Virus record (IMG/VR): IMGVR_UViG_3300024344_000002
Location: 1 to 64,000 of that record
Source: a virus
DNA length: 64,000 nucleotides
Reading direction: 5' to 3' (one strand)
Shown: piece by piece, positions 28,057 through 55,924 of the stretch
Position numbering within the stretch: position 1 is the first letter of the stretch
Layout: each line of letters starts with the position of its first letter
Notes under the pieces: model-generated
Databases searched by the model: none
What the model was told of the DNA's origin: nothing
The model's input: only the letters and a program-made list of their open reading frames with translations
Made by a program: the position numbers and the translations under genes

Positions 28057-28566
28057 ATGGCTTGGCAAAATGAAATGACAGTTATTGTTCGTCACCTAGT
28101 TAATGATTTAGACTCATCGAGCTATGAATACAATGACGACAGAGTAGAAGAATCTATTTTAGTAGCGGCACAGCTATCTTCTTTAGAAATAGACTTTGAA
28201 AGTGTCTATACAGTAGATGTAGATTCGCTTAGTTTGTCCCCTGATCCTACTGATTCAACAAACAAAGATGATTCTTTTATCAACCTTGTTTGTTTAAAAA
28301 CGGCTCAAATGCTAATAGGTAGTGAATTAAAGACACATTCATTAAATGCTATTTCTTTGAGAGATGGCCCTTCTGCGTTAGATCTTAGAGGAATAGTTTC
28401 TGGTCTTAAAATTTTGTTTGACGATATAAACAGAAGATTTGAAGAAGCTAAGACTCAATACAAACTAGATGGGGTTGTTGGTCAAGCTATACTTGGTCCA
28501 TACTCTCCCGGTAGTGACGCCATAGCAAGAACACATATGAATCAAAGGTCAGGGTGGTTTGAATAA
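28057..28566 (+). CDS. putative head-tail adaptor
   Basis: VRHLVNDLD....Y.D helical N-terminus typical of neck adaptors; position. Confidence 0.5.
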   Translation: MAWQNEMTVIVRHLVNDLDSSSYEYNDDRVEESILVAAQLSSLEIDFESVYTVDVDSLSLSPDPTDSTNKDDSFINLVCLKTAQMLIGSELKTHSLNAISLRDGPSALDLRGIVSGLKILFDDINRRFEEAKTQYKLDGVVGQAILGPYSPGSDAIARTHMNQRSGWFE

Positions 28567-30782
28567 TGGCAGAATATAAAGAACAAGATTTAAAAGCAAA
28601 GATAGAAGCGGATTTAGCCGACAATAGTAAAGGTCAAATAACAGCTAAGGTGCTACGAGACAGTATGTTGCATATTGTTGACTCTGTAGTACCTATCGTT
28701 GCTAGTGGAACTGACATGTATTTTGTCAACCCTATCAATATTAAAGATAGCGGTGTAGGCGCTGGAAATGCGCAGCTTGGTGTTATAAACGCTAAGTGGA
28801 ATGACAATACTGTTTCTTCTGTAAAGTTTCATACTGGCGATGATGCTACACATAAGAAAAATGGTCATATTACTTTTCACACATCTGCTTCTGGAATAGA
28901 TGTTGGCGGAGATGGCTTAAAAAGAAGAGTCTCTATAGAACCAGATGGACAATTTATTGTATATGGTAGTGGAACCAAACCTGCGTTTCGTTTGATAAAC
29001 AACTACAGTCCTTCTGGTGTTGGAATGCTCATAGAGCAGACGCACAAAACTTTGGCAGTTCCTAGTGGTCAAAACATAGAAATTGGTCACTTGGATACTA
29101 GAACAGAATTTTTCCATGAAAGACTGACTTTAGACGATAGAGGATATCTTGGTTTAGGTGTAAGAAATCCAGCTGAACCAATGCATATTAGAAGTTCTGG
29201 AAATGCTATAAGGTTTGATGTTAAGTCTCGTCCGAACTCGGTTAAAAATACAGCTGATATTTTAATTTCTAAATACAGTGGTGGCGAAGCTTATTCACAG
29301 AACAATTTATTTTCTAGCTTTGGTCTCGGTGTCGATACTAATGCTAGTGGAGTTGGTAGGTTCTTTGTTGGTTATGATGACGACAGAAAGAACCAAGTTG
29401 ACTTTGGAGATTCATTATTTGTCATAGCTAGTGGCGGTAATGCTTCATTAGGATCTCTCTATCCACAAGAACGATTAGTCGTAGGTGATGATCTTGGTAA
29501 GCATACAGTCGCCAGTGGTGACATAGCAGCTGTAGTAGGTGCTAATTACGGTGATGCCTCTATACTTGTTGGGTCGGGCAATGCAAATACAAACTTGTCC
29601 AACTTTGCTCAATCTAAGTGGGATAGCTCCACAAAACAGTTTATTATCCAATCAAAATCAAATGGCATAACAAGAAGTAATCAGCTTGTTCTGGACTCTA
29701 CAAATGGAAACGTAGGGTTTGCTAGTTCTGGCACAGCTTACGATACATGGAGACCACTCTTTAATACACATGTTTATGCGAGTGGCACTTCTACTGCTGG
29801 TGTAGAAACCCCGATGGGTAATGAGTCTGCTATTTATATTGGCAAGAATACTTCTGGTAGTGGCGATCCAACTATTGGACATTGGTCTTCCATTGGTTAC
29901 AAAAGTGCTAGCGAAGTACTAAAAATTAACAACTCTGGCTCATTGTCTCCAAACAATTTAACGATTGATAGAATTGGAAACGTAGGTATTGGTACAGACT
30001 CTCCCTACGACAATTTTGCCGCTGGCAATAATAGGCTTCATGTTTTTGGAAGCAATTCTTCTTTGCTGGTTGGAGAAATGGTAACTGATTCTGCAATTAG
30101 AATCTTTGGCTCAAGAAGTACTACAAACACTGCGTACATTCAAGCTGGTACAAGTGCAGCTGATGCTGATGCTAAACTTGCAATTAGCAGAATGGATAGT
30201 GATACCAGTAATATTTCTGAACTTCATTTAAGATCTGACAAAACTACTGTTTATGGAAACATTGCTTTAAATGATAAGTGGCTGAGTAATGATGGTGGTG
30301 ATGAAGGAATTAAGGTTACTAACGATGGTAAAGTTGGTATCAATATTGGGTCTCCAACACACGAACTTCAGTTGAGTACTAACTCAGCTGGAAAACCAAT
30401 TAGTTCTGTTTGGACTGTTGTTTCTGACTCTCGTGTTAAGGAAGACATAAGTGATATCACTGGAGCTTTAGACAAGATTGATGCGCTAAGACCAGTTAAG
30501 TTCAAGTATACACATGACTATTGCAATTGTGATCATTCTGGAAATATAGATGACGACACTTATTACTACAACTTTATAGCGCAAGAAGTTGAGACGCATC
30601 TTCCTGAAGCTGTTACGACAACTAACATTGACGTACACAATCATGATACTGACGAAGTGTTGGTTGAAAACATAAAAACTCTAGATGCACATATTATTAA
30701 CGTTTACTTAGTTTCCGCAATCAAAGAGCTTAAGGCAGAACTTGATGCGGCTAAAGCGAGAATAACTGAATTAGAATCCTAA
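28566..30782 (+). CDS. tail fibre/spike with C-terminal intramolecular chaperone (Peptidase S74)
   Basis: GNVGIGT repeats; SDSRVKEDI...LRPVKFKY...FIAQEVE...LVSAIKELKAE. Confidence 0.85.
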   Translation: MAEYKEQDLKAKIEADLADNSKGQITAKVLRDSMLHIVDSVVPIVASGTDMYFVNPINIKDSGVGAGNAQLGVINAKWNDNTVSSVKFHTGDDATHKKNGHITFHTSASGIDVGGDGLKRRVSIEPDGQFIVYGSGTKPAFRLINNYSPSGVGMLIEQTHKTLAVPSGQNIEIGHLDTRTEFFHERLTLDDRGYLGLGVRNPAEPMHIRSSGNAIRFDVKSRPNSVKNTADILISKYSGGEAYSQNNLFSSFGLGVDTNASGVGRFFVGYDDDRKNQVDFGDSLFVIASGGNASLGSLYPQERLVVGDDLGKHTVASGDIAAVVGANYGDASILVGSGNANTNLSNFAQSKWDSSTKQFIIQSKSNGITRSNQLVLDSTNGNVGFASSGTAYDTWRPLFNTHVYASGTSTAGVETPMGNESAIYIGKNTSGSGDPTIGHWSSIGYKSASEVLKINNSGSLSPNNLTIDRIGNVGIGTDSPYDNFAAGNNRLHVFGSNSSLLVGEMVTDSAIRIFGSRSTTNTAYIQAGTSAADADAKLAISRMDSDTSNISELHLRSDKTTVYGNIALNDKWLSNDGGDEGIKVTNDGKVGINIGSPTHELQLSTNSAGKPISSVWTVVSDSRVKEDISDITGALDKIDALRPVKFKYTHDYCNCDHSGNIDDDTYYYNFIAQEVETHLPEAVTTTNIDVHNHDTDEVLVENIKTLDAHIINVYLVSAIKELKAELDAAKARITELES

Positions 30783-33238: not shown

Positions 33239-33276
33239 AACTTAGAAAACAAAACTCACTTTTGGGAGAGATTATA

Positions 33277-34404
33277 ATGGCAGCAAATAGAATTTACTGG
33301 GCTATTACTGCGCTTAGTACTGCTCCTGAATCTACTGGTGCAGCTGGTCCGGGTGGCGAAAAAGCCATTACCGCAGCCAACTTTGTGCCGGGCGTTCAGA
33401 GTGTCGGTATTACTACTACATTTAATCTAGAACAGGTTTTTGAACTTGGTCAATTAGAATTGTACCAAGACGTTGAAGAAGTACCTGATATCGAAGTTTC
33501 TGTAGAGCGCGTAATAGATGAACATATACTTTTATATACTAGGTGTGTAGATCCTGCAACACCAAGTGGCAATAAGACTATTTCAGCAATCCAAAACAAT
33601 AAGGTGGATGTATTTATGAATGTACATCCAGACTCAGCCGATAATGCTGGTGATAGTGTACCAGATGCTATCGTTCATTGTTCTGGTATGTATTTATCAA
33701 GTGTTTCATTTAACATGGCAACTGATGGTAACTTAACTGAATCTATTACTCTTGTTGGAAACCACAAGAGATGGAGACAGGGTAAGGCGCACGAGACTGG
33801 TACAAATACTCACTGGAGTAGCAAAACTCCATTCGTAGTAACTGATGTTCCTCGTGGTATGCCTACAGCTACGAACATTGATGCTAAAGCAACTGGTGCT
33901 GTTGTAAAACGTCGTCAAAACGTTCACATCACACCTCCTGCTAGTGCTGGTGGTTCAGATGCAAAAGTTACAAGTGCTAGTGTAAGTTGTGACTTTGGTC
34001 GTGAACAAATTAATGTTCTTGGCGCTAGACTGCCATATCATAGATATGTTAGTTATCCTGTTGAAGTTACTTGTGATTTGGAAGTTGTAATTACTGATAT
34101 TAATGATCAAGGTATTACAGCTTTGCCAGAGTCTGACAATCTTAGCGAAGAAACTCTTAAGTTTGAAATTAAAGACGACGCAGGAGTTGCAATTGCTACT
34201 ATTGACCTTGGCACTAAAAACAAACTTACATCTGTTACTTGGGGCGGTGGAGATACTGGTGGTGGTAATGCTACCTTTAGTTACTCATACCGTAACTTTA
34301 ACAAGATGGATGTTCACAGTCATAAAACAACATATAGTATTGTTGAATGTGGCGATGACGCCAATAAGAATGTTACTGACTACACAAGTTCTATTAGTTG
34401 TTAG
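33277..34404 (+). CDS. major tail (tube) protein
   Basis: GVQSVGITTTFNLEQVFELGQ and second half SVSCDFGREQINVLG (duplicated tube-fold halves); own promoter and terminator. Confidence 0.7.
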   Translation: MAANRIYWAITALSTAPESTGAAGPGGEKAITAANFVPGVQSVGITTTFNLEQVFELGQLELYQDVEEVPDIEVSVERVIDEHILLYTRCVDPATPSGNKTISAIQNNKVDVFMNVHPDSADNAGDSVPDAIVHCSGMYLSSVSFNMATDGNLTESITLVGNHKRWRQGKAHETGTNTHWSSKTPFVVTDVPRGMPTATNIDAKATGAVVKRRQNVHITPPASAGGSDAKVTSASVSCDFGREQINVLGARLPYHRYVSYPVEVTCDLEVVITDINDQGITALPESDNLSEETLKFEIKDDAGVAIATIDLGTKNKLTSVTWGGGDTGGGNATFSYSYRNFNKMDVHSHKTTYSIVECGDDANKNVTDYTSSISC

Positions 34405-34421
34405 TAGTCTGAAATCTGACT

Positions 34422-34455
34422 TGATAAGGGGTTGGTTTTCCAGCCCCTTTTGTCA
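34422..34455 (+). terminator. terminator-like hairpin after the tail tube gene
   Basis: AAGGGGTTGG-tttt-CCAGCCCCTT-TTG. Confidence 0.7.
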
Positions 34456-34564
34456 GTTCACATAGCGATAGCCACAAAATTAGGATAGGCGAGTGAATGA
34501 GCTGACTTTTTATACGTATGGGATTATAAGGATCGGGAAGCAAAAAACCCGATAGTAGAATTCT

Positions 34565-35599
34565 ATGGAATTTTATGAACGGGATTTTTTTGTATCAAGG
34601 CTACTAGCCGGATATGTAAAACTAGACTTCAAAAAGCTGAAGCTCTATGTTCATCCACCTACTCCTGAAGTTAATTATGAATCTCAGGAGATTTTTATGG
34701 AAGCTTACGAAGAAGCTTTTATGTCGGGTGTTTTCACAAGACAAGAAATGCGCAACTACATGCTTCAAAACGGCTTGTGGTCAAAAGCGGAAGAAAAAGA
34801 AAAAGAAAAAGTAAAAAAAGAAGCAGAAGATTTAAAAATACAGCTTTATAAAAACTTTGTAAACCCAGTAAAGAAAAAAGCAATAAGAAGCTTGATTAGG
34901 GAAGCTGAACAAAAATTATTGAATCTAGCAATAAAGGAGTCAACGTATAATCATACTGACTGTGAAGGTTTAGCGACCTATGCAAGATTGAATTGGTTAA
35001 CGCAGAATACAACAAAAAATCTAGATGGTTCTTTGTATAGTTTTAATGAAATTGATGTATCAAGTGTATTAAAAAGATATCAAGCAGAACTGTTAGATGA
35101 TTTAGAAGCAAGGGAGATAGCTAGGACTGAACCTTGGAGGAACAATTGGAATAGCTCCAAATATACCAACGGGTTATTTAATGTGAGTTCTCCAATACAG
35201 TTAAACCAAGAACAAAAGTCGGTTTTAGCATATTCTCAGATGTACGATAATATATCTGAATCTCATGAATCACCAGTTGATGACATTATACAAGATGATG
35301 ATGCTTTAGATGGCTGGTTAATAAAACAAAGAAGAGAATCAGAAAAAAGAAAGAATCAAAAAGGAAACGAAGACAGACTTGGCGCACATAGTGGAGCTGA
35401 CGAAGTCTACGTTATTACAGAAGGAAAAGAAGAGGCCGAAGCTGTATACGATATGAATGATGGCGAAGCAATGTACAATGTTTCTGAGCGATTTGCCACT
35501 TTGGAAAGAGATGGCGAAATTGACTACACGGCTTTTGGGGATGTTAAAAGAAGACTAAATGAGCAAATGAATGACATGATGAAATCAAGGAGAGGTTGA
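34565..35599 (+). CDS. putative tail assembly chaperone-region protein
   Basis: Helical, acidic; lies between tail tube and tape measure. Confidence 0.5.
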   Translation: MEFYERDFFVSRLLAGYVKLDFKKLKLYVHPPTPEVNYESQEIFMEAYEEAFMSGVFTRQEMRNYMLQNGLWSKAEEKEKEKVKKEAEDLKIQLYKNFVNPVKKKAIRSLIREAEQKLLNLAIKESTYNHTDCEGLATYARLNWLTQNTTKNLDGSLYSFNEIDVSSVLKRYQAELLDDLEAREIARTEPWRNNWNSSKYTNGLFNVSSPIQLNQEQKSVLAYSQMYDNISESHESPVDDIIQDDDALDGWLIKQRRESEKRKNQKGNEDRLGAHSGADEVYVITEGKEEAEAVYDMNDGEAMYNVSERFATLERDGEIDYTAFGDVKRRLNEQMNDMMKSRRG

Positions 35600-36000
35600 T
35601 GGAAGAATCATACGCAGAACTTGTCAGAAAATCTGATAAGTTTAAAACAGACAAAGATAAAAAGTACAAAGACGTTTCAAAAGATCGTCTTTTAAAAATA
35701 TCCAAGAAAAAAGTTCAAACAACTATGATTGGCGCTTTAAGCACAATCGAGCGAGTTTTTGGTTTTTTATGGGGTCATGGTTCTCAAGAAGAACTTACTC
35801 CAGAACAAGAACACATGAAAGAGCTTTTTGAAGAAGTTAGATCGGAAATATTGGACAGGGGCAACAATCAGTCTAGAAATCTCGAAGCTGAATTTGCTAA
35901 TTATGAAATTAATTGGTTGAGGTATCAAATGACGTTACCCGTTAAACCACTAAATACATTAGAAGGAGATAAAGATGGCCAAGCAGAAACAGCTGGATAA
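35599..36000 (+). CDS. hypothetical protein (tail assembly region)
   Basis: TGATG overlap, GGAG RBS. Confidence 0.6.
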   Translation: MEESYAELVRKSDKFKTDKDKKYKDVSKDRLLKISKKKVQTTMIGALSTIERVFGFLWGHGSQEELTPEQEHMKELFEEVRSEILDRGNNQSRNLEAEFANYEINWLRYQMTLPVKPLNTLEGDKDGQAETAG

Positions 36001-36916
36001 GATCGAAGTAAAAAGTGTTGACTCAAGAGGTAAAGACAGAACTGTTTATCTTAAACTACCTGACTCGAAAGTAAATAAGGAAGCTCAGTTAGCATACAAC
36101 AAGGCTTTCCGAAATGCACTTCAAGACGGCGCAATACTCAGACAAAAACTGAACAGCGTCATGAGAGAGCAAGGAGTTTGGAGTGACAAAAAACAAGACG
36201 AATACGATAAAGTACTCAAAGAGATTAATGATAGCGAACTAAGAATTAAAAAGGGTGGTATTTCACTTGCGGAAGCTAAAAAAGTGGCAATGTCCCTTAG
36301 AGATCTTAGAGACCGCTTCAGAGTGCTTATTGCAGAACGATCTTCGATGGATAGTAACACCGCAGAAGGCTTAGCAGATAATGAAAGATTTGGTTATCTA
36401 GTCTATGCTTGTTTGGTAAACGAAAAAGGTCATAGACTTTTTGATGATTATGATTCGTATCAAACAAACGAAGCAGAACCATTTGTGGTGGAAGCAGCTG
36501 GAGCTTTGGCAGAAAAGTTGTATGGATTAGATCCAGACTACGATAAAAATTTACCAGAAAATAAGTTTTTAGTTGATTATAGTTTTGCTGATGAAGAACT
36601 AAGACTTGTTAATGAAGAAGGCCATCTAGTTGACAGAGAGGGTAGACTCATCAACGAAGACGGTAGATTCATTGCCTATAATGATGACGGTGAACCATAT
36701 TTTATAGACAAAGACGGTAAACTAGTTACTGAAGATGGCGAATACGATATTGAATTTTCACCATTCTTGGACGACTCAGGAGATGCAGTTCCTGTACCCG
36801 GCCAAGAAGAAGAAAAGAAAGAAGAAGAGGAAGAAGTCGCTGTAGTAGAAGAAAAGCCTAAACCTAAAACTACAAGACGACGCAGGACAACTAAGCAAAA
36901 AGCAGATACCGAATAG
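35975..36916 (+). CDS. putative tail assembly chaperone with xxDxxG hairpin repeats
   Basis: Directly precedes the TMP; LVNEEGHLVDREGRLINEDGRF..NDDGE..IDKDGKLVTEDGE. Confidence 0.5.
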   Translation: MAKQKQLDKIEVKSVDSRGKDRTVYLKLPDSKVNKEAQLAYNKAFRNALQDGAILRQKLNSVMREQGVWSDKKQDEYDKVLKEINDSELRIKKGGISLAEAKKVAMSLRDLRDRFRVLIAERSSMDSNTAEGLADNERFGYLVYACLVNEKGHRLFDDYDSYQTNEAEPFVVEAAGALAEKLYGLDPDYDKNLPENKFLVDYSFADEELRLVNEEGHLVDREGRLINEDGRFIAYNDDGEPYFIDKDGKLVTEDGEYDIEFSPFLDDSGDAVPVPGQEEEKKEEEEEVAVVEEKPKPKTTRRRRTTKQKADTE

Positions 36917-36981: not shown

Positions 36982-39900
36982 ATGTCCGACAAGTTTCTTT
37001 TAACAGCACAATTACACTTACAAGCCCCTACTAATACAAAACAGGTATTGAAACAGATTCAAAACCAGTTGAAAGGTGCTAATGTAAATGTTCAACTCAA
37101 AAATGCTAAGCAGACTGTTACTCAGTTAAAGCAGACAGCTAAACAACTGCAAACTGTACAAAAACAAGCTAAAGGTGCTGAAACTCAAATGGACCGGCTT
37201 GGAAAAGCTTTCGGTCAAACTTTAAAGTATATTGTTCGATACGACCTTGCTCGTAGAGTTTTTAGTCTATTTACAAATGCTATTGAACAAGGTACTAGAG
37301 ATGCTATAGCCTTTGAAAGAGAAATGGTAAAAGTTTCTCAGGTTACTGGCAAGTCAATGAGGCAACTTTCTGGCCTTACCAAAGAAATTGGAAACCTTGC
37401 TAAAGCATATGGTACTTCATCTGCTCAATTAGTAAAGACTGCTCGTGTTTTGTCTCAAACAGGTATGGCTGCTAGAGATGTAGAAATGGCTATGAAGTCT
37501 TTAGCCAAAAGTACATTAGCTCCAACCTTTGACAATATTACAGATACTGCTGAAACTGCTATTGCAGCTATGAGGCAGTTTAGATTGGAAGCCAATCAGT
37601 TAGAGGGTCTCTTAAATAAGATCAATGTTGTCGCCGGTAACTTTGCTGTTGAAGCTTCTGATATTGGTGCTGCTATTAAGCGTGCCGGTGGTGCGTTTGC
37701 TTCTGCTGGTGGACAAGTAGAAGAGTTCATAGCACTCTTCACTTCTGTCCGTGCTACAACGCGAGAAACTGCTGAAACGATTGCTACTGGTATGAGAACT
37801 ATCTTTACCAGAATACAAAGACCTAAAACAATACAATTTCTAAAACAGTTTGGTGTAGAGCTGCAAAACTTAGAAGGTCAGTTTATTGGGCCTTACCAAG
37901 CTGTAGAACAATTAAACAAAGCTCTAGCTGGTCTAGACCCTAAAGATGTTCGTTATTCAATGATTATTGAACAGCTTGGTGGTTTTAGACAAGTTTCTAA
38001 AGTTATTCCACTTATTCAACAATTTGGTACTGCCCAAGATGCTTTGAATAAACAAATGTCTTCCCAAGGAAGTTTGTCCGCAGATGCTGCCAAAGCTCAA
38101 AAAACTCTTGCTGTTCAGATCGCCCAGTTAACTGAAAATGTTAAAGAGCTATTTAGAAATATAACTTCCTCTGCCACTTTTCAAGTCCTTGCTAAAGGCG
38201 CTGTTGCATTTTCTAATGCTATTGTAAAAGCCGCTGATGCTATCTCTGGATTGATACCTATTCTTGGAGCCTTGTTTGCTGTTAAAGGTATGAAGTGGTT
38301 AATGGGAGGAGGTATGTCAACGATACTGGGTTCTGGTGGTGGAAGACCTAGACCCTATGGACCTGCACCTCAAGGATTTAGTCAGGGTGGTTGGGTTCCC
38401 GGAACTGGTAGTGGTGATACTGTACCAGCATACTTAGAACCGGGTGAATTTGTTATTCGTAAACGTTCTGCTCAAAAACTTGGTCCTAGATTAAACTCTC
38501 TTAACAAGTATGCTGGTGGCGGTGTTGTTTCTGCAAAACACACCGGGACGGTAGATGGCGATACTTATAGAGCAACTTTGAGAAATAGTGGAAAACCGTA
38601 TAGTAGTCGTACTAGACTCAAAGGTTATGACGCTGCTGAAATGCCAATTGAGCGTGAGAAAGAAATATGGAAAGCGCATGGAATAAATCCTGATACTGAT
38701 CATCCGGGTATCGTAGCTAAAGGCATAGCAGAGAGTTATGCTAGCAAATTAACTCCTAAAAAATTCACAGCGATGTTTACAGGTAAAGATGGATCAGGGC
38801 ATGGGATGGGTGCTTTTGATAGACCTCATTATAAAGCTGACGATCTTGGTGAACAGCTAGTAGGTGCGGGAGTTGGTGCAAAAGGTAAGTTTAGTATTTA
38901 TGACTGGCTTGTAAAAAATAAAGGGCAGAAGAAAGCAGACGCTATAGTGAAGGCGGGTAAAGCAACTAAGGATAAAAGTGTTCGTTCAAGAGGAGATAAG
39001 TACAACAGAGGCGGTAAAGTACGCGCTCCTAACTCTTTGTTAACTCCCGGTGAGTTTGTTGTTAACAAAAAGTCTGCTAAAAGAATTGGTTATGGCACGC
39101 TTGGCTCTCTGAATAGATATGCTGTTGGTGGTGTGGCAGGCGGTGGCTTAGGATTCGCAGGTGGTGGACTTAACGCAGAACAGGCTCAAGCGTTAATTGA
39201 CGCAATAACAAAACTAGTTCCTTCTTTTGAGAGACTACAACTAGCTACTGGAAAAGTTGGTGATGTTTTTGAGGCCACAAAAAATGCAGGAAAAGAATTA
39301 ACTAAATTTGCCGCTTCTACAGCTGAAGCTGGAGCTGAAGTTGGTCTACAGTACGCTAAGTTTAAGGCTTTTGGCGGTGCTGTTAATGCAGGTCTAGATT
39401 CTATAGGTTTGCAGAATACTGCTTTTGAATCTCTCGTAGATACTACGTTTCAAGTAAAAGCTAATTTAGCCGCTATGGGTGAAGCAGCCAATCAACTAAA
39501 AGGTGACTTCGGAGATGCTGCTCAAGGATTTTTTGAAACTTTAGCTGGTAGTGGAAAGCTAGGCAAAAAAGCTAAAGGGTTTGCAGAGGGTGGAGGCATT
39601 GGAAAGATTCGAGATAGGCTTACACAAGATGCAGAAGCTGCCGGTAGGTTTGGTGTGGGTGGCAAAGGATCTAGAGATGCTCTAAAAATGGAGCAAGAAA
39701 AACTTCCACAGATGCGAAAACAGGTGGAATCAAAACAAAAAGAATTAGACGCATCAAATAAAGCGTTAGAAAAAGCTAAGCGCGCTCAAGCATATAAAGC
39801 TCCCGGTGACACTGGAAAGCTAGACAGAGCGAGATACGAACAACAACAAGCTCAAGAAAGCTTAGGTAAAGCGAAAGGTCGTGTAGCTGGGGGAGAAAAA

Positions 39901-42900
39901 TCAGTTAGAAAAGCGCAGATGAAGGGCATGGCCATTCAAGCTGCTGCTGCTTTAGCTACTAGTGTTGGTAAAAAACTTGAAGCTACAGGAATGGCCGCAG
40001 CAGAGGCGGGTGAAGGAACTGGTATGCAAGCTGCTGCTGGTAGATCTTTAGGAATGGCTGGACAGGGTGCGCAAATGGGTGCTATGTTTGGTCCTATGGG
40101 TGCTGCTGCTGGTGCTGTTACCGGTGCGCTTATTGGTTTTGTCACAGGTCTTAGAGATGCTAAGTTAGCTCTCGCAAAAGCAAGACTTGGCGAAGTTATG
40201 GAAGACACTGCTGAAACGATGCAAAAGTTCCGTGATGGAACAGCAACAGCAGCTGAAGTGCAGGCAAAATTAAATACGCAATCTACTGCTATTGATGATT
40301 TTAAGGCTGAAGGAATGGGGGGATATGCTGGAAGCACTGCTGGAAATAATGCAACGAATATTGTTGCCGGAGCGACTTCTGGTGCAGCTATTGGTGCGGC
40401 TATTGGAAGTATCGTTCCTATCTTTGGAACTGCTGCTGGTGCAATTGTCGGTGGTATCACTGGTGCAGTTACTGGTTTCTTCGCGGATTGGGCAGGACCA
40501 GACACAGAAGCTGTCACTGCTGAATGGGCTAAATCAACGCTAGAAATGCAGAAAAATATAAAAGAATTCCGAACTGGCGTTATTAATACCTCTAAGTCTT
40601 TTTCACAATTTGAATCTAATTTTGGAAGTGAAAATATAGATAGAATTGCCAAGATGGAGGGCAAGACTAGACAACAAGTAGTAAAAGAAATAACGAAAGA
40701 AATAAACGAAAGGAACAAACAAAGAGAAGCAGCTGAAAGACTAGTTGAAGCTCAAAATGAAGCAACTAAACAAATGATTAGGATGCAGCAATTGGGTCAA
40801 GTCTTTGATGAGCTGTCTTTTAGAATGGAAGGTTTTGGTAATGTACTAGATGGATTATCTAACATCACCGGAAGTGTCAAAATAGGATCTATAGGTTCAG
40901 CTCTTTCTGACGAAAGAATGGCTTCTAGAGATCAAGCTTCAAGAGATAGATATACAGGCAACGTTGATGCACTCACTAATATGGCTGGTGAGGGCGACAT
41001 GGGCTTAAAGAATTTTGCAGATAGTGCAAAGGGTGGCGCAATACTATCTCAAGAACTTGGAAGAGCCTTGACTATGAATCGAAAAGGCATTGGTGTTACA
41101 AGAAAGTTAGACGACGAAGGCAATATGTCTATCGTCGAAGGTAGCTTCGCTCAGAATGTAATGGACACCATACCTAAAGAGCTTGCCGATAAAATTCCAC
41201 CGGATATGTACGATCAGGTTAAAGACAACATAGCTGACATGGTTGTCGCTGAAGGTGGTTTAGAAAACCTACAGAAGAAGATACAAGAAGATCCAGATGC
41301 TCTAGTGAAAGAGCTTACAGGCGGATTGACTGAATCTAATAAAGCGTTTGAACAAGCTGGTAAAATGCTTGATTCTCATAATGCTAAGCTCCAAGAAGCG
41401 TATGCTAAACGCAACTCAATGGAGATGAGCTTTATAAAAACTCTACAAGATTTAAATACTCGTAGAGCATCATTAGTTGCCGATGACAGGGTGAGAAGAG
41501 GCGGTAAAGGAATGAGTACCGCAGAAGCTAGGGCTTTAGACGCTAAAAACAGAGGCGTAGCCATGAATGCAGTTTCTGCCGGTACTATGGCTTCAACTGG
41601 TTTAACAGCTGGTTCTGGACCAAAAGAAATTGCTAAAGCTATGGCTAAAGTTCGTGAAGACATAAAACAGAGCGATGAACAATTAGCAACCCAAGGAGTG
41701 ACGGGCGTTGGTATGGACTCTTCGCAGGGGTTGGCTGATTCACAAAAAGATCTAATAAAAGCGAACGCAGACTTAAAATCTGATTATGAAAAACTGCAAG
41801 GGGTTATGCAGCAATATGCTTCTTCTCAACAAGAGATGATCGCTCTTAACAAAGAGTTAGAGCAGCAGCAAAAGAAACAAAAGACATTAGAGCAATTAGC
41901 TGAAGATATGGCTTTTGGTACTGCTGAGCAAAAAGGTGAAGCCGCCAAGGTGATGAATGAGCTTGCTAAAGCTAAGACTATGGGAATTGGCGCTGTAGAT
42001 CCTGAATATCAAAGACAAATAGTAGGTCTTCTCAAACAAACTGGTAACGAAGACTTAGTTACTTCAACTATAAATCAAACCGCAGCAAATGCTGGAGTAA
42101 TGTTAGATCCAAAGACTGGTGGTATCAAAGGGGTGACAACCGCTAGCGATAAACGTAATGAAATTGCTGACAGGATGAAAGAGCTTGACGAACAAGGTCT
42201 AGCAGCCGCAGAAGGTTTAGCTTCTGAAGAAGGTCAGATACTAGCTGACTTCTCTGCTGGTATTGAGTCTCTTCATCAGAAGTTCTTAAGTGAACTCTTT
42301 AACATGTTAGCAGAAGCAAGAAAGAGAGAGTTAGAAGATAGAAAAGCCGACTTAGAAGCAGAACAAGAGGTTACACAAAAGCAGTTAGACTTCTTCGGAA
42401 AAGATGCAGCTGCTGCCTTGGGAATAGAAGATATAAGCAAGCTCAAGTTCAAAGATGGAGATACAGAACTTACTGGAGCTGCTGCTATGGAAAGAATTAT
42501 TCAAGGAGGATTTCTGGGGCAAGTCACTCAAGCTCAAAATATACAATCAAATATGGCAGGTAACCCTCTCGCAGCAGCTGTCATGGGAGGTATGGGAACC
42601 GAAGTATTAGATGACTTCCGTGACGGAAGCCATAATGCCATTCTTGAACAGCTTGGAATTACGGCAGCGGATGTTTACTCCACAGGATCTGACGCAAATG
42701 AAGATACTGACTTAGATGCAGCTAATACAGATATGGCGCAGCATATAGCAGCTAGAATGGGAGAAGAGCTAAGCAAAGCAGGTTTTGATATTGATGGTGA
42801 TACGCTACAAAAAAGATTGCTGGACAGACTTTCACCCGAAAAAATGGAATCTCTTGGCGGCTTTGACTTTGATGATTGGATAAGTGGTCAATTAGAAGCA

Positions 42901-44673
42901 ATAGGTAGAGGCGCTAGAAATCAAGTAAAACTCACTGGCAAGAATCAAGAAGCTCTTCAAGCTTTACAAGGGGCTAATGCTACAAACTTAGGTTCAGGTG
43001 CGCAGTCCCAAATAGACAAACTGCAAGCAGAAGCTGGCATCGAAGCAGGCATACAATTTGACATAGGCAAAGCAAACGAAGAATTAGATAAATCTATTGA
43101 GAAGCTTGCTACTACAGTCAATGAAATGGCTGACCTTGATAAAAAGACAGGAGCCAAAAAAGTTGAACAAGCCGAAGCTGAAGCAAAGATTGAACAAAAG
43201 AGACAAGAAGAAAACAAAAAAGTAACAGATCAAATCAAAGGTGATACAGGAGTTCCAGTAGCTTCTGTTGGTGGAAGTGCAGCACCAATAGCTGCTACAA
43301 CATTTAATGCAAGTCCAATAGTAGGAATGAAACAGGATCTGCCAACTCCTATGTCATTATCAGACATGCCAGATGGAGAGTGGGTAGGGCCTTCATTAAG
43401 TCAAACTGGACCCGAAGCAGAAGCAAAAGTTATAGCTCAAGAAATGACTAAACAGCAGAGCATTGCTCCTAGTGCTGCAAGCGGAGGAGGAGCATCTTCG
43501 TTTATCAGTAATATGGGTAAAGGTTTATCTAATGCACTTTCAAAGGGTAGCGAGTTAATTTCCCAAGTAGACCCAACAAGCATGAAGAAGGCTATGGTAG
43601 CTGCTCAGTCATCAAGTAGACGCGAAAGATTAGCCGAACTCAAAGAACAGATAAAAGGTACTACAGAACAACAAAGTAGATTTAAATCCATTCACAAAGA
43701 GGGAACAAGCACGAATATGCTTGAAACTCTGAATAGCTATAATCCGATGACGGGGTTTGGCATGATAGGTCCGAATAGTGACTTCCAAAGCAAAACTGGC
43801 ATGAGCAAAGATTTTGTTGAAAGAGAGATGGGTAAAGGTGCAGAACAATTAAAGGGTCTAAAAGCAGAACAAGCATCTTTGTTAGCTGAAGAAAAAATGG
43901 CAGCAGAAGTAGCTGCACAAGAACAAGCAGCAGCAGACGAGGCTGCAAAGTTTGAACCTTTGATTCTAGCTATTACTGACGGTAGCTTGGCGATAGTAGA
44001 AGCGATTGAAAATTCTGCTATGAGCGCAGAGCAAAAAAGAGCTGAGGCTGAACAAGCAGCCCAAGAACAAGCAATCGCAGAACAGACAAAGACTCCAGAG
44101 CAATTAGCTCAAGAGGCGGCAAAGTCAGCATCAATGTCAACTGCGCAATCACAAGTAGATAGCTTGTCGAAATATGGACTAAACACTGGAATATCCACTG
44201 CTTCTAATACACTAAGAAGAGAACAGGAAAGACAAGCAGCAGAAGCAGAAGCTGTTAAGAAACAAGAAGAACTAGCAAAACAATTAAAGAATGGAGCGGG
44301 AGATGCCTTAGCTCAAGCTGGTGCGAGTGATCTAACGCCTGATCAACAAAAACAACTTTCCTCAAAATTAGAAGCGCCGGGTTCAGAAGGGTTATTGTCA
44401 GCTCTAGGTGTTGAACCATTACAAGAGCAAGTAGAAAGACTTGGTTCTATATTTGAAAATGCGCTTCAAGTTGAAGTTGGTGGTACTATAGATGTAAACG
44501 TTAATATGAATGGTGCTGAAGCATTAGCGAATGCTGAAAAAGCATTTGGATCATTAGCTTCTAAGAAAGCTACTGATGCAATAAATAACTTTATTAGTGA
44601 AATGAATAAAGGCGGCAATAACGCAAGACCTAAACAGAAGGAAAATTGGACTGGTAATGGAGAGGCAAGCTAA
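36982..44673 (+). CDS. tail tape measure protein (2563 aa) with embedded SNase-like domain
   Basis: N-terminal TP901-type core (FEREMVKVSQVTG, ETIATGMRTIFTRI, GGFRQVSK), glycine-zipper hydrophobic stretches, long Ala/Gln/Lys helices; VDGDT/RLKGYDAAE insert. Confidence 0.9.
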   Translation: MSDKFLLTAQLHLQAPTNTKQVLKQIQNQLKGANVNVQLKNAKQTVTQLKQTAKQLQTVQKQAKGAETQMDRLGKAFGQTLKYIVRYDLARRVFSLFTNAIEQGTRDAIAFEREMVKVSQVTGKSMRQLSGLTKEIGNLAKAYGTSSAQLVKTARVLSQTGMAARDVEMAMKSLAKSTLAPTFDNITDTAETAIAAMRQFRLEANQLEGLLNKINVVAGNFAVEASDIGAAIKRAGGAFASAGGQVEEFIALFTSVRATTRETAETIATGMRTIFTRIQRPKTIQFLKQFGVELQNLEGQFIGPYQAVEQLNKALAGLDPKDVRYSMIIEQLGGFRQVSKVIPLIQQFGTAQDALNKQMSSQGSLSADAAKAQKTLAVQIAQLTENVKELFRNITSSATFQVLAKGAVAFSNAIVKAADAISGLIPILGALFAVKGMKWLMGGGMSTILGSGGGRPRPYGPAPQGFSQGGWVPGTGSGDTVPAYLEPGEFVIRKRSAQKLGPRLNSLNKYAGGGVVSAKHTGTVDGDTYRATLRNSGKPYSSRTRLKGYDAAEMPIEREKEIWKAHGINPDTDHPGIVAKGIAESYASKLTPKKFTAMFTGKDGSGHGMGAFDRPHYKADDLGEQLVGAGVGAKGKFSIYDWLVKNKGQKKADAIVKAGKATKDKSVRSRGDKYNRGGKVRAPNSLLTPGEFVVNKKSAKRIGYGTLGSLNRYAVGGVAGGGLGFAGGGLNAEQAQALIDAITKLVPSFERLQLATGKVGDVFEATKNAGKELTKFAASTAEAGAEVGLQYAKFKAFGGAVNAGLDSIGLQNTAFESLVDTTFQVKANLAAMGEAANQLKGDFGDAAQGFFETLAGSGKLGKKAKGFAEGGGIGKIRDRLTQDAEAAGRFGVGGKGSRDALKMEQEKLPQMRKQVESKQKELDASNKALEKAKRAQAYKAPGDTGKLDRARYEQQQAQESLGKAKGRVAGGEKSVRKAQMKGMAIQAAAALATSVGKKLEATGMAAAEAGEGTGMQAAAGRSLGMAGQGAQMGAMFGPMGAAAGAVTGALIGFVTGLRDAKLALAKARLGEVMEDTAETMQKFRDGTATAAEVQAKLNTQSTAIDDFKAEGMGGYAGSTAGNNATNIVAGATSGAAIGAAIGSIVPIFGTAAGAIVGGITGAVTGFFADWAGPDTEAVTAEWAKSTLEMQKNIKEFRTGVINTSKSFSQFESNFGSENIDRIAKMEGKTRQQVVKEITKEINERNKQREAAERLVEAQNEATKQMIRMQQLGQVFDELSFRMEGFGNVLDGLSNITGSVKIGSIGSALSDERMASRDQASRDRYTGNVDALTNMAGEGDMGLKNFADSAKGGAILSQELGRALTMNRKGIGVTRKLDDEGNMSIVEGSFAQNVMDTIPKELADKIPPDMYDQVKDNIADMVVAEGGLENLQKKIQEDPDALVKELTGGLTESNKAFEQAGKMLDSHNAKLQEAYAKRNSMEMSFIKTLQDLNTRRASLVADDRVRRGGKGMSTAEARALDAKNRGVAMNAVSAGTMASTGLTAGSGPKEIAKAMAKVREDIKQSDEQLATQGVTGVGMDSSQGLADSQKDLIKANADLKSDYEKLQGVMQQYASSQQEMIALNKELEQQQKKQKTLEQLAEDMAFGTAEQKGEAAKVMNELAKAKTMGIGAVDPEYQRQIVGLLKQTGNEDLVTSTINQTAANAGVMLDPKTGGIKGVTTASDKRNEIADRMKELDEQGLAAAEGLASEEGQILADFSAGIESLHQKFLSELFNMLAEARKRELEDRKADLEAEQEVTQKQLDFFGKDAAAALGIEDISKLKFKDGDTELTGAAAMERIIQGGFLGQVTQAQNIQSNMAGNPLAAAVMGGMGTEVLDDFRDGSHNAILEQLGITAADVYSTGSDANEDTDLDAANTDMAQHIAARMGEELSKAGFDIDGDTLQKRLLDRLSPEKMESLGGFDFDDWISGQLEAIGRGARNQVKLTGKNQEALQALQGANATNLGSGAQSQIDKLQAEAGIEAGIQFDIGKANEELDKSIEKLATTVNEMADLDKKTGAKKVEQAEAEAKIEQKRQEENKKVTDQIKGDTGVPVASVGGSAAPIAATTFNASPIVGMKQDLPTPMSLSDMPDGEWVGPSLSQTGPEAEAKVIAQEMTKQQSIAPSAASGGGASSFISNMGKGLSNALSKGSELISQVDPTSMKKAMVAAQSSSRRERLAELKEQIKGTTEQQSRFKSIHKEGTSTNMLETLNSYNPMTGFGMIGPNSDFQSKTGMSKDFVEREMGKGAEQLKGLKAEQASLLAEEKMAAEVAAQEQAAADEAAKFEPLILAITDGSLAIVEAIENSAMSAEQKRAEAEQAAQEQAIAEQTKTPEQLAQEAAKSASMSTAQSQVDSLSKYGLNTGISTASNTLRREQERQAAEAEAVKKQEELAKQLKNGAGDALAQAGASDLTPDQQKQLSSKLEAPGSEGLLSALGVEPLQEQVERLGSIFENALQVEVGGTIDVNVNMNGAEALANAEKAFGSLASKKATDAINNFISEMNKGGNNARPKQKENWTGNGEAS

Positions 44674-44679: not shown

Positions 44680-47277
44680 ATGGCTACTTATATAGGTTCA
44701 TCATTAATAAACGCAAGAGCAAGAATGCTCAGCAATGTACATGCTAGCGGAAATCTTCCTGTTTCCGTTGGTACTGTAGGTACATTGCATAGACCCGGTG
44801 AAACTAATGACATTGGACTTGTAATGTTTGGGGAGGTTGAAAGAGCGCCTCAAAGGTTTGTTGCACCAAGTGGTACAAATAGAGAGTATGCATATTGGAG
44901 AGGAAACCAAAACAAACAAACAGTTCAAAAATTTGATCAAGCTTATATGGCTTTAGAAGGTAGTGGAATATATGGTTCTGCACCTCAAGTGATAGTAGAA
45001 ACAGGTGACTCTTCAGGCAGTGGAACCTGTTCTGAAGGCAGTGGTCAGGGTGGCTGTACTTGGTTTTGGGATTTATATAGTGGTGGTTGGATATCTTATG
45101 GAAGCGTATGTCCCGATGGTTGTGGTTGTGGTAATCCACCATCTTACAATGGGTCAATGTATGGAGAAATAACTAACACTGATTGTACTGGCTCAACAGC
45201 AACCCAAACCGGACAAGGTGTAGGAGATGATGTCGGTTACGCTAGATGGTTCAAAGCCGGAGAAACAAAAGACTACCTTGGGGATGAAGCTATTACTCAA
45301 AGATCTCTTTATCTTAGTGAGAGATCGTTCATCAATGTTGGCAGTGGTGTTGATATTGGGCAGACTTCAGGATACACAGCATTTGCTAAGTTTGTGCCTA
45401 GTGGAGACATGTCTAACACCGTCTTAGTATCTCAACATAAAGAAAATCCAGCCTTATTTGTTTTGGGTTGTGACTTTGATGGCAAATTTTACATCAGATC
45501 TGACAGTTCATCAACCGAGTTAGGCCGAGACAATATAGCCCAATTTGCTAAGTCAAGAGAAACATACGAACAATACAAGTATCCAGTACACTTGATGGGT
45601 GTATACGCTTCTGGAGATTCAAGATTAAAGCTCTATGTTAATGGAAAGCTAGAAGGCGAATCAGAAACATTCACTAGAATCACAAATAAATCAGCTAACA
45701 CTAATATGATTTTGGGCAAACGAGAGTTTGCTATGACTCAAAAAGGTTTTACTGGGTGGATAGATGAGATTGGAATATCTTCAAGATCTCTTGGTTCTAC
45801 TGAAGTGCAGTCTTTTTATGATAGCACATTCTCAATATCAGATTTAATATTCAACGCTGATGTTACTCCAACAGGAGGTGCGTTAGAAGGTACTGCATTT
45901 GGTGACTCTGGTATAGACGCTTTCAATGAAACTTATGCAGAGTTACATATTGAATCTGGAAATCCTTATAACGCAAAAGGAGGAGCTTACGATTTAAAAT
46001 CTTGGGGTGGTACTAACAATGCGGTATCATCAGTTCTTACATTTGATTTAACTCAAATAGACCCTAGATTTCATCAGTTAGAATCTCTTTCTGTTGACAT
46101 GTGGGTGGAACACAACACCACGCATCCAAGCGGAGCTGATGTGTCTGTTGTGGTAGAAAATCAGAAAACGCCGAATGTTAACTTAGCTTGGGCAGCATCT
46201 GGGATAAATATCCCGTCTGGTCAAAAAAGGCTATTATCTTTTAATAAACCTTTAAGTCAGAACTTGTATACTAAGACTGGTAAAGAGTCTTATAACTTGT
46301 CATTGGATAGACACAAGCTAAAAATTATCGTTTCGTATCCTGCCTTAGATAGTTTGTACAATGCTGAGTTTAGAATTTTCTCCAGTAAATTAATGTATGA
46401 CGGCTTTGACATACTTTCTAAGTATAATAGTAAGGATGGATTGTCTATAGGTCCTACAATCTATGGGCATGGAGTTTTGGATGAAGATGGCTATTATGCA
46501 TCATATGACACTGGCGATAAAAGCTTAACATTTTTCACTGAAGGTGGAACTCCCACTGCCGCAAGTGGAAACTTAGCTTTATTTGTTGACGCTGATACTG
46601 CTGCACAAAGCTTAAACTTAGTATTGAATCATGATCCTCAAACAAGCCTTGGTAACACTGCTACCGGTTCTTTAGCAGCTAATGCTGGTGTTACAATGAA
46701 CACCACTCTTGGTTTGTTTACTAAGTTTGGACCAGCTTCTGGAAACCTTAATTTATTCTTGAAGCAAAAAGAATTTAGAAAAGCAGTTCCCGGTACATTG
46801 AATTTTGACATTACCGGCTCTGAATTTGTATATCCATACAATCAGAAAAATATGCCTTTGTTCCTTCTTTCTTCTGCTGGAACTGGGATACATGCAGCTG
46901 AAATGTTTTTGACTATGCCAAAAACTATAGCTCCTCCTATATTCGATAAACGCTTACTGTTTATTGAAGGTAGGCAACCAGTAGCTGATATACCTTTATG
47001 GATACAAACAGCTTCTGGAATTAATAGATTTTCCACTTTGTATGTGTTAGCTCCTAATGCTGCATCTACAAATACAAATATGAATCTATTTTTGAAAGAT
47101 AAAAATATATTTTCTACGTCATCATTGAAGGCTAATGCCGGTATTGTAATGAGTGGCGTTCCTCCATTGTTTGTCAGTGGTCTAGGACTTGGAAGCGGTT
47201 TATTAAATTTGAGTATACCAAACACTATTGGTTCTGGTACTTCCAACACAACACTAACTACAAAAGGTATATTTTAA
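44680..47277 (+). CDS. tail protein with LamG/concanavalin A-like domain and Cys-rich insert
   Basis: HLMGVY....LKLYVNGKLEG...ILGK....FTGWIDEIGI..R.L...EVQ; C-terminal LxLF repeats. Confidence 0.7.
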   Translation: MATYIGSSLINARARMLSNVHASGNLPVSVGTVGTLHRPGETNDIGLVMFGEVERAPQRFVAPSGTNREYAYWRGNQNKQTVQKFDQAYMALEGSGIYGSAPQVIVETGDSSGSGTCSEGSGQGGCTWFWDLYSGGWISYGSVCPDGCGCGNPPSYNGSMYGEITNTDCTGSTATQTGQGVGDDVGYARWFKAGETKDYLGDEAITQRSLYLSERSFINVGSGVDIGQTSGYTAFAKFVPSGDMSNTVLVSQHKENPALFVLGCDFDGKFYIRSDSSSTELGRDNIAQFAKSRETYEQYKYPVHLMGVYASGDSRLKLYVNGKLEGESETFTRITNKSANTNMILGKREFAMTQKGFTGWIDEIGISSRSLGSTEVQSFYDSTFSISDLIFNADVTPTGGALEGTAFGDSGIDAFNETYAELHIESGNPYNAKGGAYDLKSWGGTNNAVSSVLTFDLTQIDPRFHQLESLSVDMWVEHNTTHPSGADVSVVVENQKTPNVNLAWAASGINIPSGQKRLLSFNKPLSQNLYTKTGKESYNLSLDRHKLKIIVSYPALDSLYNAEFRIFSSKLMYDGFDILSKYNSKDGLSIGPTIYGHGVLDEDGYYASYDTGDKSLTFFTEGGTPTAASGNLALFVDADTAAQSLNLVLNHDPQTSLGNTATGSLAANAGVTMNTTLGLFTKFGPASGNLNLFLKQKEFRKAVPGTLNFDITGSEFVYPYNQKNMPLFLLSSAGTGIHAAEMFLTMPKTIAPPIFDKRLLFIEGRQPVADIPLWIQTASGINRFSTLYVLAPNAASTNTNMNLFLKDKNIFSTSSLKANAGIVMSGVPPLFVSGLGLGSGLLNLSIPNTIGSGTSNTTLTTKGIF

Positions 47278-55800: not shown

Positions 55801-55924
55801 TTCGCAAAGAAATGAAGAAAGAATTAAAAACATGGAAGCAAAAATGTTTGCAAATGAGAAGGCTTTTGAGGACTTTATTGTGAGAATTCGCAGAGACTTA
55901 TTATCAGAAACTGGGAAAAACTAA
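49847..55924 (+). CDS. very large tail-tip protein with Cys-rich modules (2025 aa)
   Basis: N-terminal QTFLGASI..F.LNLGF...STLNVSLVED, VVVEDPR; C-terminal GPYVTDVNVQIGSGGVTTTY typical of Tal/hub-like proteins; central C..xGGxW modules. Confidence 0.6.
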   Translation: MSTVYTYPLRERNINESILPYYSGDTGDDGFVIFQQTFLGASISQFALNLGFNGNSSTLNVSLVEDEWNLDSKMTANTVRDAITEGYHHWDPTAFPVGLVRDNGRQLGLDPFVAGDRSSVGTHVYRNGNNLNLPAGDLFWATTPGEPVYFRYYDGARLSSACVSNRTCANSNTGDASTSPLTFEFNGILKSYKRDWSGNGQTYSVVVEDPRVILENTTVILDSFQGHTAPADAWYMDQHYHPNEKAITPKETLEALGQDAKFQRKFEEGYNGYYNVVNVFGYYEEAGGFGQSDTNEHGIPWFAATADYINAWGYKHNKGILPALDMILSGTMKEYIKDEEPYGGPLYYGLNSRPTTFGSSTSYENSPTGFPNNAGVHKYAIDLSPLYNLNNIYNPTPKDVDYGDSIGMGTVGDDFRIKGTKNLLQLIQEICTAAGADFFVDLYVPRNGTGNPAEQKLFDMHKHKAGIIRVIPIPKNADIQPGIIKTVLDQSLFLKIGPWADKIISADVGYEHTDPTTGMFTIGAPLTRVIGVSMTGGQRSKPSDNWRGKGKILGSRRREDFFFNKDTEKYFDGDVDPERDDVLIDSGPFLELDGAALQGYATTLYDGHMWGVWRHPSKRDADGDFSHFKDYNADWGGKKGTIPNFFDAVDGRPILKDEIADLVDNDYFDARPVPIGRLKMGADNNNNGVIVNKVDPFMFNIPNNKDVDKWFTENSGDYEGVPDKNPSLYDNEGNELEWPQHPMDGYIDLFPAWGFTSKRFVQKSEFGQQIDIQTKGEPIMGMFHDDDPYRDFHPYDGLFGGIAFFNPGLGKCVSKPKCTYSDGSYATKEGIENGELCNTKESCEAGYNNTRSYCDKGQYNNQGDCVNNGGTWYSNVKDPGCNGPNEKASTWDGGMQPKTACDNMPEICQCDPEQEFKDNGGEDPENECTTARNGHPIGCAGIFKYDCIPWANCVTSAGDSITGSIPGAPPLGAGLYLPGSDWGRDEWSCTQACFQVENLEALTPADRQQRTNIDVKGATVGDLLETAPVLAVDENDEPADLGAEGRKLINKPSLCSALEEKDYTGYIDGGSSGERVPAWVGAVMYIDSTTGHPSPSQSTARLNGTQGNSFEGNDNGPYAEDCTWRNFRQPNGGWCKDNDTNDHALGHTGSHRYTREDVDQTFNTRAECEQTLVDETIVNDDGSSVTKGVKRERSENPQLYGNFEWITKVWDPLCTRAEPNTPDAVDPKKNNPGPGYINPVVALEGSCTDPQWTNRQDCVGLGETWDQKKTAGSRDLKGFPKIPNTATIPVDLSSTQFVGFKGGPSSINIDNASGYYMATVTELRHASIGFDNYFNYLRVFQPFLPCYYCQAQGGKWCNYCPTEANIAMNGITPEQAAGWQNLAAMGNDKPMNPIEDGLSRGTDEREGQTEAGLVCGRKKIKWNEYEASGVTMQDAFKKVQDLANNFYGRKYLMPLPFNPPTVVGCANPWIETQAECEETKSTCLDDMGNIIHQLDDDGDYIVPFVPVTDETECGQRNGVFSEVGGFDWGAHGLLSEWFRKFGVGTCKKGAGSEEVVAWVPDRAECEKIKGIWIDPLQTEQKWDIVGAGWPGEGYDPDWEKQTWMNTTYPQDVNFWEGGNLASFVAFPHKETRRLQGDKVDLNFGDIDPERMSNPDERMFTREELEKNKHHNNIHKGYTGKVFVRADVDPKTYWLKTRPMWELLHAKTYPIRSPKHRQPRQAPEFIKESRKLLTRDTLHKYIPQDEKWRADELTEFAFYKPYALITIPNAVRYGHVDYAKAVDDMGEGEICIPLIHHKNSNCLQRAWARSSGVSPEIAAWQNLAAFGNDTLTHPMIAPDGSKSQIADAAYKPFYAGVPQQSTRYTWGPWAIGTGFGKTEYKQDTSLHPATFGSERELNRFALAQAKRALIQQQNTLETGTVSLAGLPTYFAGTQIMLTIADGTDANGNPAFKQVQGPYVTDVNVQIGSGGVTTTYNLTTARKFGDLSQRNEERIKNMEAKMFANEKAFEDFIVRIRRDLLSETGKN

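Follow-up and report, generated by a model that had tools for sequence, protein, structure and literature searches.

The gene for the tape measure protein (TMP) in a 64,000-nucleotide stretch of viral DNA (positions 1 to 64,000 of IMG/VR record IMGVR_UViG_3300024344_000002, referred to below as the window) encodes a giant protein in which two copies of a conserved cassette bracket an insert resembling staphylococcal nuclease (SNase). We consider it likely that the insert is a divergent SNase-fold domain lying in an exchangeable cargo slot bounded by the cassettes, and that it acts after the TMP has been expelled from the tail. The window was taken from a 73,324-bp uncultured virus record with a CheckV completeness of 48%. 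The features that carry the argument are these:

36982..44673, + strand: giant TMP gene, a single open frame of 2563 aa
37396..37983, + strand: PhageMin_Tail (PF10145) core, TMP aa 139-334, by Pfam match
38377..38523, + strand: cassette 1, aa 466-514 (FxxGG...VPGxGxGDTVPAxLxPGEFV...YxxGG), by custom profile match and the invariant columns of a 20-sequence alignment, A1
38521..38916, + strand: predicted SNase-fold domain, aa 514-645, by AlphaFold, Foldseek, VIA-align, hhalign and residue invariance
38554-38556 and 38560-38562, + strand: D525 and D527, at SNase catalytic positions by hhalign pairing
38614-38616 and 38629-38631, + strand: R545 and D550, at SNase catalytic positions by hhalign pairing
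38638-38640 and 38821-38823, + strand: E553 and R614, at SNase catalytic positions by hhalign pairing
38917..38991, + strand: Lys-rich linker, aa 646-670, whose length varies among relatives (alignment A1, columns ~215-290)
38992..39132, + strand: cassette 2, aa 671-717, by custom profile, alignment and BLASTP to copy 1

The product of 36982-44673 was assigned as a giant TMP of the PF10145 type. This assignment follows from the PF10145 match in the Pfam scan (E 3.3e-27, 96.1 bits against a cut-off of 33.2), from matches to the PHROG tape-measure families phrog_28, 4211, 1533 and 4704, and from the relatives of the protein. A search with aa 460-725 gave 733 matches of 1409-4486 aa, and PF10145 was present in nearly all of the best 120. 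As in TMPs of this type, the PF10145 domain is N-terminal and hydrophobic segments are present.

The cassettes were delimited with a custom profile built iteratively from relatives of the TMP (121 TMPs). An earlier note on this DNA had quoted two copies, at aa 466-514 and 674-717. Both are present, with profile limits of aa 466-514 and 671-717, and the observation of a cassette-bracketed insert in the TMP is confirmed. The copies align over 33 aa with 55% identity (E 5e-10 in a single BLASTP comparison), and both satisfy a ~50-aa pattern that runs FxxGG, G-x-G-x-x-D-x-V/I-P-A, x-L-x-P/x-GEFV, K-x-x-A, G-x-x-L and YxxGG. No DNA-level repeat linking the two copies was found; their likeness therefore appears to be held by selection on the protein and not to reflect a recent duplication. 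The [FY]xxGG sites listed earlier at aa 466, 510, 674, 713, 725 and 867 were all verified, and an additional one was found at aa 890. Seven such motifs in the TMP compare with 1.28 expected (2000 shuffles, P ~5e-4), while the six within aa 460-880 compare with 0.8 expected from shuffles. Four of the seven are simply conserved termini of the cassettes, each copy opening with F-x-x-G-G and closing with Y-x-x-G-G.

All of the motifs quoted for the insert (VDGDT, RTRLKGYDAAEM, GAFDR and DLGEQLVGAG) were located in the translation. A single-sequence AlphaFold model was useless (pLDDT 38.7). Prediction from alignment A1 gave a pLDDT >90 at fragment residues ~50-195 (aa 514-660), with a drop from 74 to <40 past about fragment residue 190, in the linker. 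The predicted model has the fold that the earlier note had expected, an OB-type beta-barrel with helices superposable on staphylococcal nuclease. Using Foldseek against the Protein Data Bank (PDB), staphylococcal nuclease was found in 50 of the 50 matches listed (best E 5.6e-4, prob 1.00, TM ~0.5 on target length). VIA-align, which is independent of Foldseek and covered 48,161 chains, placed 1sta_A at rank 1 (Z 8.9, rmsd 4.3, 108 of 137 residues, model residues 49-180). Ranks 1-15 are all SNase-fold proteins, including SND1/Tudor-SN and extended Tudor, after which Z falls to 3.7. In the ESM Atlas, 25 of 30 matches belong to the PF00565 set.

The same relationship was seen by comparing profiles. 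When 26 insert sequences were aligned by hhalign with 10 real PF00565 proteins taken from three bacterial genomes, the match covered 110 columns with a score of 37.1, P 2.1e-5 and Prob 76.7, a moderate and not a strong value; none of the controls, one reversed and 20 with shuffled columns, exceeded Prob 0.9 or a score of 17.1. The alignment pairs DGDT with DGDT, TRLxGyDAxE with iRLxcIDAPE, R614 with the second Arg of D-R-Y-x-R, and LVxAG with mVxxGxA. In 26 of 26 relatives, residues D525, D527, R545, D550, E553 and R614 are unchanged, at 36-52% identity to the window's copy elsewhere in the sequence. We take these catalytic-position residues to be the equivalents of SNase D21, R35, D40, E43 and R87. 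The proposal that the insert is SNase-like was thus supported by the fold searches, the profile-profile alignment and the residues at catalytic positions, and it failed at the Pfam threshold for PF00565. Judged from the model and the alignments, the insert is a divergent member of the SNase superfamily that falls outside PF00565 by that threshold. On the pattern of conserved residues, the domain is probably catalytic.

The content of the slot was compared among the best 120 of the 733 matches. First slots of these TMPs are 106-1256 aa long; grouping them at 70% mutual coverage gives 67 clusters, of which 48 have a single member. N-termini are complete in 115 TMPs, and 106 pairs have pre-cassette cores that are at least 80% identical; in 47 of the 106, the slots share no BLAST match at E 1e-3. 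Homology breakpoints were sought by BLAST in four TMP pairs. P0028 and P0111 are 98.4% identical over aa 1-515, exactly to the end of cassette 1, and similarity resumes at 54% from 710/684, the start of cassette 2. P0069 and P0078 are 91.9% identical up to aa 521/530 and resume at 846/825, again the start of cassette 2. P0023 and P0105 are 95.9% identical up to aa 518 and resume at 701/721, ~14-17 aa ahead of cassette 2. This wholesale replacement between near-identical TMPs indicates that, as far as the alignments can tell, the slot behaves like a site for interchangeable cargo, with the cassettes as module boundaries.

Recognizable domains occupy several of these slots. The domain in the window begins 3 aa past cassette 1. 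An ADP-ribosyltransferase (ART, PF03496) is present in slot 1 of P0117 (538-691, 20 aa after the cassette), P0115 and P0021, and in slot 2 of P0074 (923-1135), where it is tightly bracketed and lies 58 aa after the cassette. P0082 has SLT (lytic transglycosylase) and PG-binding domains between its cassettes, and P0180 has an SLT domain 8-16 aa past a cassette. The expectation that relatives would carry different domains between their cassettes therefore held, both in the 67 slot clusters with unrelated slots beside 92-98% identical N-termini and in the ART and SLT domains. The SNase domain itself was found in 29 of 121 TMPs, in full length in 26 and in part in 3; each time it occupies the first slot, a few residues past cassette 1. 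Because this region served as the seed of the search, such frequencies are biased and are not population estimates. A scan of IMG/VR gave the insert in only 4 of 80 loci. Pfam found no domain in ten inter-cassette segments from bacterial contigs or in the slots of P0031, P0050 and P0120. Slot 1 of P0031 (aa 581-1052) and slot 1 of P0050 (aa 511-1243) each have a Walker-A-like GxxGxGKTT near the start of the slot, and their content may be an unrecognized P-loop cargo.

The cassette is not restricted to the TMP of the window. With the custom profile, 2-7 copies were found in each of the 121 giant TMPs (2 copies in 20, 3 in 13, 4 in 36, 5 in 36, 6 in 15 and 7 in 1), and successive copies are often ~1000-1100 aa apart. 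Cassettes were also found in TMPs of ordinary length, in contigs assigned to many bacterial phyla, and in cultured phages (Gordonia, Ralstonia and Bacteroides phages and cyanophages). When cultured phages were searched with the cassette-insert region, only the cassette was matched and no match covered 80% of the query. No Pfam family covers the cassette in the TMP of the window or in the 20 relatives scanned. A cassette-only profile of 42 sequences, A3, was searched against 177,635 PDB sequences, and the four best matches were all TMPs: Douge gp16 (E 6.6e-10, two cassettes at 964-1009 and 1411-1457), 8vjh_Q, lambda gpH (8iyk_H, aa 732-782) and JBD30 gp46 (cassette at aa 1018-1068). In lambda gpH, aa 733-782 (L141:2439-2588) matched the larger custom profile end to end at 23.2 bits, compared with a maximum of 8.4 in 500 shuffles of gpH. 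From this distribution among sequences, we regard the cassette as an old TMP element.

Two further occurrences were recorded. Gene 011 of Synechococcus phage SynMITS9220M01 (L126:3044-5023) adjoins the baseplate-hub genes of this T4-like cyanomyovirus, and its 659-aa product is annotated as a ‘hypothetical protein’. This product has a hydrophobic region, one cassette at aa 320-369 and a Hydrolase_2 cell-wall hydrolase at aa 444-510, so that cassettes also occur outside the rulers of siphophages. A cyanophage match, H1, that seemed to extend into the insert was rejected, as what comes after its cassette is a cell-wall hydrolase. TMP genes on a group of bacterial contigs (L099-L106, L110, L112, L113, L120 and L121) share a pair of cassettes that lie 128-130 aa apart, at about nt 3154-3537 of each contig. 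These contigs, which probably contain prophages, are mostly from Burkholderiales, with L112 from Myxococcota, L102 from Methylolobus and L105 from Steroidobacteraceae. The conserved slot of this group matched neither Pfam nor the SNase profile.

A number of observations weigh against a nuclease in an exchangeable slot. PF00565 matched neither the whole TMP nor two sub-fragments at E 1 in Pfam, none of the 20 aligned relatives even at E 10, and nothing in the 73-kb record at E 10. The Pfam model for PF00565 begins only at the R-L-x-G-I-D-A-P-E strand. Among PDB sequences, a profile of cassette, insert and cassette gave no match to an SNase at E 10, and phmmer of the cassette-insert region gave no match at all. 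The copy in the window has DAAE where SNase relatives show DxPE, the spacing from DGDT to the arginine exceeds that of the aligned PF00565 proteins, and to these must be added the moderate hhalign probability. A phmmer search of 1.84 billion representatives with the insert returned four matches, P0005 and three that are TMPs or fragments of TMPs. An insert-only profile searched against proteins of 69-258 aa gave only one fragment, so that the insert had no free-standing relative in these searches and its descent from cellular or phage SNases is untraced. As for the cassette, it is modeled as a beta-hairpin and a helix at a pLDDT of only 55-66, which is low confidence, and it is resolved in none of the solved TMP structures as described in the accessible parts of those reports. 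T5 pb2, the only TMP with both a mapped cleavage site and an anchoring segment, has no cassette even at E 100. The seeding of the survey counts on the same side, as does the fourth pair examined for breakpoints, P0034 and P0046, which gave a single long BLAST alignment in which the breakpoint is unreadable.

One alternative is that the insert has the SNase/OB fold and is not a nuclease in vivo, serving instead as a nucleic-acid-binding or structural module that holds the leading DNA end or acts as a spacer. Many SNase-fold domains are non-catalytic, for example those of Tudor-SN and extended Tudor, and of the top 15 VIA-align matches, SNase itself accounts for one and SND1/Tudor-SN or extended Tudor domains for the other 14. 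The failure of the TMP, its fragments and 20 relatives to match SNase in Pfam also speaks for such a module. The domain lies in the head-proximal quarter of the TMP, and the papers, in the portions available, place contact between TMP and DNA in the tail tube or near the connector or neck. However, invariance of six residues at catalytic and Ca2+ positions throughout 26 relatives of such divergence is hard to explain without catalysis, and true enzymes (ART and SLT) occupy slots in relatives. We consider a non-catalytic role quite unlikely. Chance resemblance deserves almost no weight. The TMP is a long chain with much Gly, Ala and Lys, and its single-sequence model is poor, as would be expected if both the SNase likeness and the duplicated cassettes were accidents of a low-complexity protein. 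Yet Foldseek, VIA-align, the ESM Atlas, hhalign with its controls and residue invariance each refute this independently for the insert, as do BLASTP between the cassettes, the motif shuffles, the cassette matches in the PDB and the lambda gpH shuffles for the cassette.

A different explanation concerns the cassettes, which might be repeated assembly elements of the ruler that bind, for example, the tail assembly chaperone, the tube or the hub and are separated by fast-evolving linkers that sometimes gain domains. The occurrence of 2-7 cassettes per TMP at a frequent spacing of ~1000-1100 aa fits this explanation, as do single cassettes with no adjoining enzyme in ordinary TMPs (lambda gpH and JBD30 gp46) and the lack of a Pfam match for most slot sequences. 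On the other hand, slots of different length and without similarity lie between flanks that are 92-98% identical, which argues for replacement and not drift, and in several members an enzyme (SNase, SLT or ART) begins ~3-60 aa past a cassette. We believe it unlikely that assembly is the whole explanation; a role in assembly or anchoring is compatible with the cassette also being a recombination boundary, so the two are not exclusive.

If a cassette-bounded cargo slot is accepted as the preferred reading, a sequence of events can be proposed by extension from lambda and T5, as far as the accessible parts of the literature on them go. The TMP would lie extended in the tail lumen and be expelled on opening of the tip, its hydrophobic segments would enter the envelope, and the embedded enzyme domains would fold after leaving the tube. 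The cassette may serve as a docking or stop element, a hook of hairpin and helix, and could mark processing as in lambda gpH; by the same analogy, the domain is possibly cut free at the cassettes. The interpretation in the earlier note is in this way upheld in part, its proposals of cleavage at [FY]xxGG, of release of the domain and of nuclease activity being made by analogy with lambda and T5. SNase-type enzymes require millimolar Ca2+, and a marine host's periplasm or envelope is therefore favored as the site of action. The closest relatives come from Tara ocean samples. The nuclease would probably act in this Ca2+-rich compartment, the alternative being delivery to the cytoplasm, and it would cut nucleic acid early in infection, either host or competitor DNA or RNA. 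A wider proposal can be put forward, although we hold it to be doubtful. The giant TMPs of marine and environmental phages would be plug-and-play carriers of effectors, with the cassette, a homolog of the element beside the processing site of lambda gpH, acting both as a mark for cutting or docking and as a recombination joint for swapping cargo such as nuclease, ART, lytic transglycosylase and dozens of unknown domains. The nuclease would be freed before the genome arrives, in the envelope or in the cytoplasm, and be directed against nucleic acids of the host or a rival or against defense molecules.

The remaining features of the TMP are as follows:

38200..38307, + strand: hydrophobic segment, aa 407-442 (Kyte-Doolittle window >1.3)
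38308-38376, + strand: Gly/Pro-rich linker, aa 443-465, following the hydrophobic segment
39133..39171, + strand: Gly-rich stretch after cassette 2, with FAGGG at aa 725 (motif search)
39580..39663, + strand: the extra [FY]xxGG motifs FAEGG (aa 867) and FGVGG (aa 890), found by motif search in a region where the cassette profile gives no match
40078..40488, + strand: two glycine-zipper-like hydrophobic segments, aa 1033-1057 and 1126-1169, within the long C-terminal extension (Kyte-Doolittle profile)

The N-terminal quarter of the TMP is laid out like a complete lambda-type TMP, with the PF10145 core, a hydrophobic segment, a Gly-rich linker and a cassette in succession; another 1846 residues follow cassette 2. 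P0074 has a comparable glycine-zipper-like region with a weak match to Gly-zipper families.

The genes around the TMP are compatible with a tail module. Upstream, the open reading frames (ORFs) at 33262-36916 gave no family match in PHROGs and Pfam except for an Ig-like domain below the cut-off. A 738-aa tail fiber is encoded at 28566-30782, upstream of the presumed tail tube genes, and has a C-terminal Peptidase_S74 intramolecular chaperone domain at aa 620-684. The ORFs downstream of the TMP are large, one of them with Laminin_G_3 (44680-47277); those at 49847-55924 (2025 aa) and 57736-63999 (>2088 aa, running off the window) presumably encode tail tip or fiber proteins. All long ORFs from about nt 3185 on are on the + strand, and the cumulative GC skew climbs steadily over the window. 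The G+C content of the window is ~34-43%, the TMP gene being slightly richer at ~42-43%.

Enzymatic motifs in TMPs are already known, judging from the accessible literature, in the peptidase of T5 pb2 and the hydrolase motifs of mycobacteriophages, as are injected polyvalent proteins with several effectors. We found no published description of a nuclease within a TMP, nor of the cassette as a repeated boundary of exchangeable modules, in a search whose coverage excludes most subscription journals. If the reading preferred here is correct, there is a large and mostly unannotated reservoir of early-delivered phage effectors, as suggested by 67 clusters in one slot of 120 proteins. The cassette would also help to locate, from sequence, the region in which lambda gpH is cleaved, which is still to be mapped, and siphophage tails would have a natural site at which engineered cargo could be inserted.

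Compared with the SNases of PF00565, the insert has the same fold in the model and the same order and, aside from the DGDT-to-arginine interval, the same spacing of DGD[ST], R-x4-D-x2-E, G-R and a C-terminal LVxxG helix. It differs in being embedded in a 2563-aa virion protein, where PF00565 SNases are secreted or free enzymes, in a longer loop between the first strands, and in a larger helical insertion (~aa 555-605). Among TMPs, that of mycobacteriophage TM4 is said to have embedded peptidoglycan hydrolase motifs. The order of hydrophobic stretch, Gly-rich stretch and cassette is common to the TMP of the window (407-514) and lambda gpH (691-782). Lambda gpH has 853 aa and yields gpH* and gpHC, and its one cassette stands right after the hydrophobic, Gly-rich stretch; unlike the TMP of the window, it has a single cassette, no enzyme domain, and ~70 residues after the cassette as against 1846. 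According to the available text of PMC12617516, the cut that yields gpH* from gpH lies in the vicinity of residues 690-730, with neither the exact site nor the protease identified. The cassette of gpH adjoins this cleavage region and could be a landmark for mapping the site. In the literature accessible to us, lambda gpH is the one TMP for which a cut close to a homologous cassette has been documented. JBD30 gp46 and Douge gp16 share the cassette with the TMP of the window, and the accessible parts of the structural reports leave the cassette region unresolved in both structures. In JBD30, the accessible part of PMC11445458 describes residues 1022-1066 as a predicted hook of two helices and a beta-hairpin, and its authors speculate that the hook retains the TMP in the opened baseplate.

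T5 pb2 offers a parallel in layout, with a hydrophobic stretch, an anchoring segment of ~43 aa and an enzyme domain, as far as the accessible text describes it. That text (PMC10038345) reports cleavage after R1127, which separates off a metallopeptidase part; this part, once expelled and refolded, is suggested to be active in the periplasm. The enzyme of pb2 is muralytic and not a nuclease, and it is a single C-terminal cargo, in contrast to an internal bracketed slot. Homology of the T5 anchoring segment to the cassette was considered and rejected on the basis of the E 100 search; since pb2 lacks a cassette, the parallel is architectural only. Polyvalent proteins are mostly head-associated (MuF-linked) and not tail rulers. 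They combine ART, GNAT and other effector domains, according to the portion of PMC7824862 available. As is proposed for the TMP of the window, these are, on the same partial account, virion proteins that are expelled at infection and bear enzymatic modules. Polyvalent proteins carry several unrelated effector or enzyme domains each; one enzyme domain was recognized in the TMP of the window, and its relatives carry ART or SLT and PG-binding domains.

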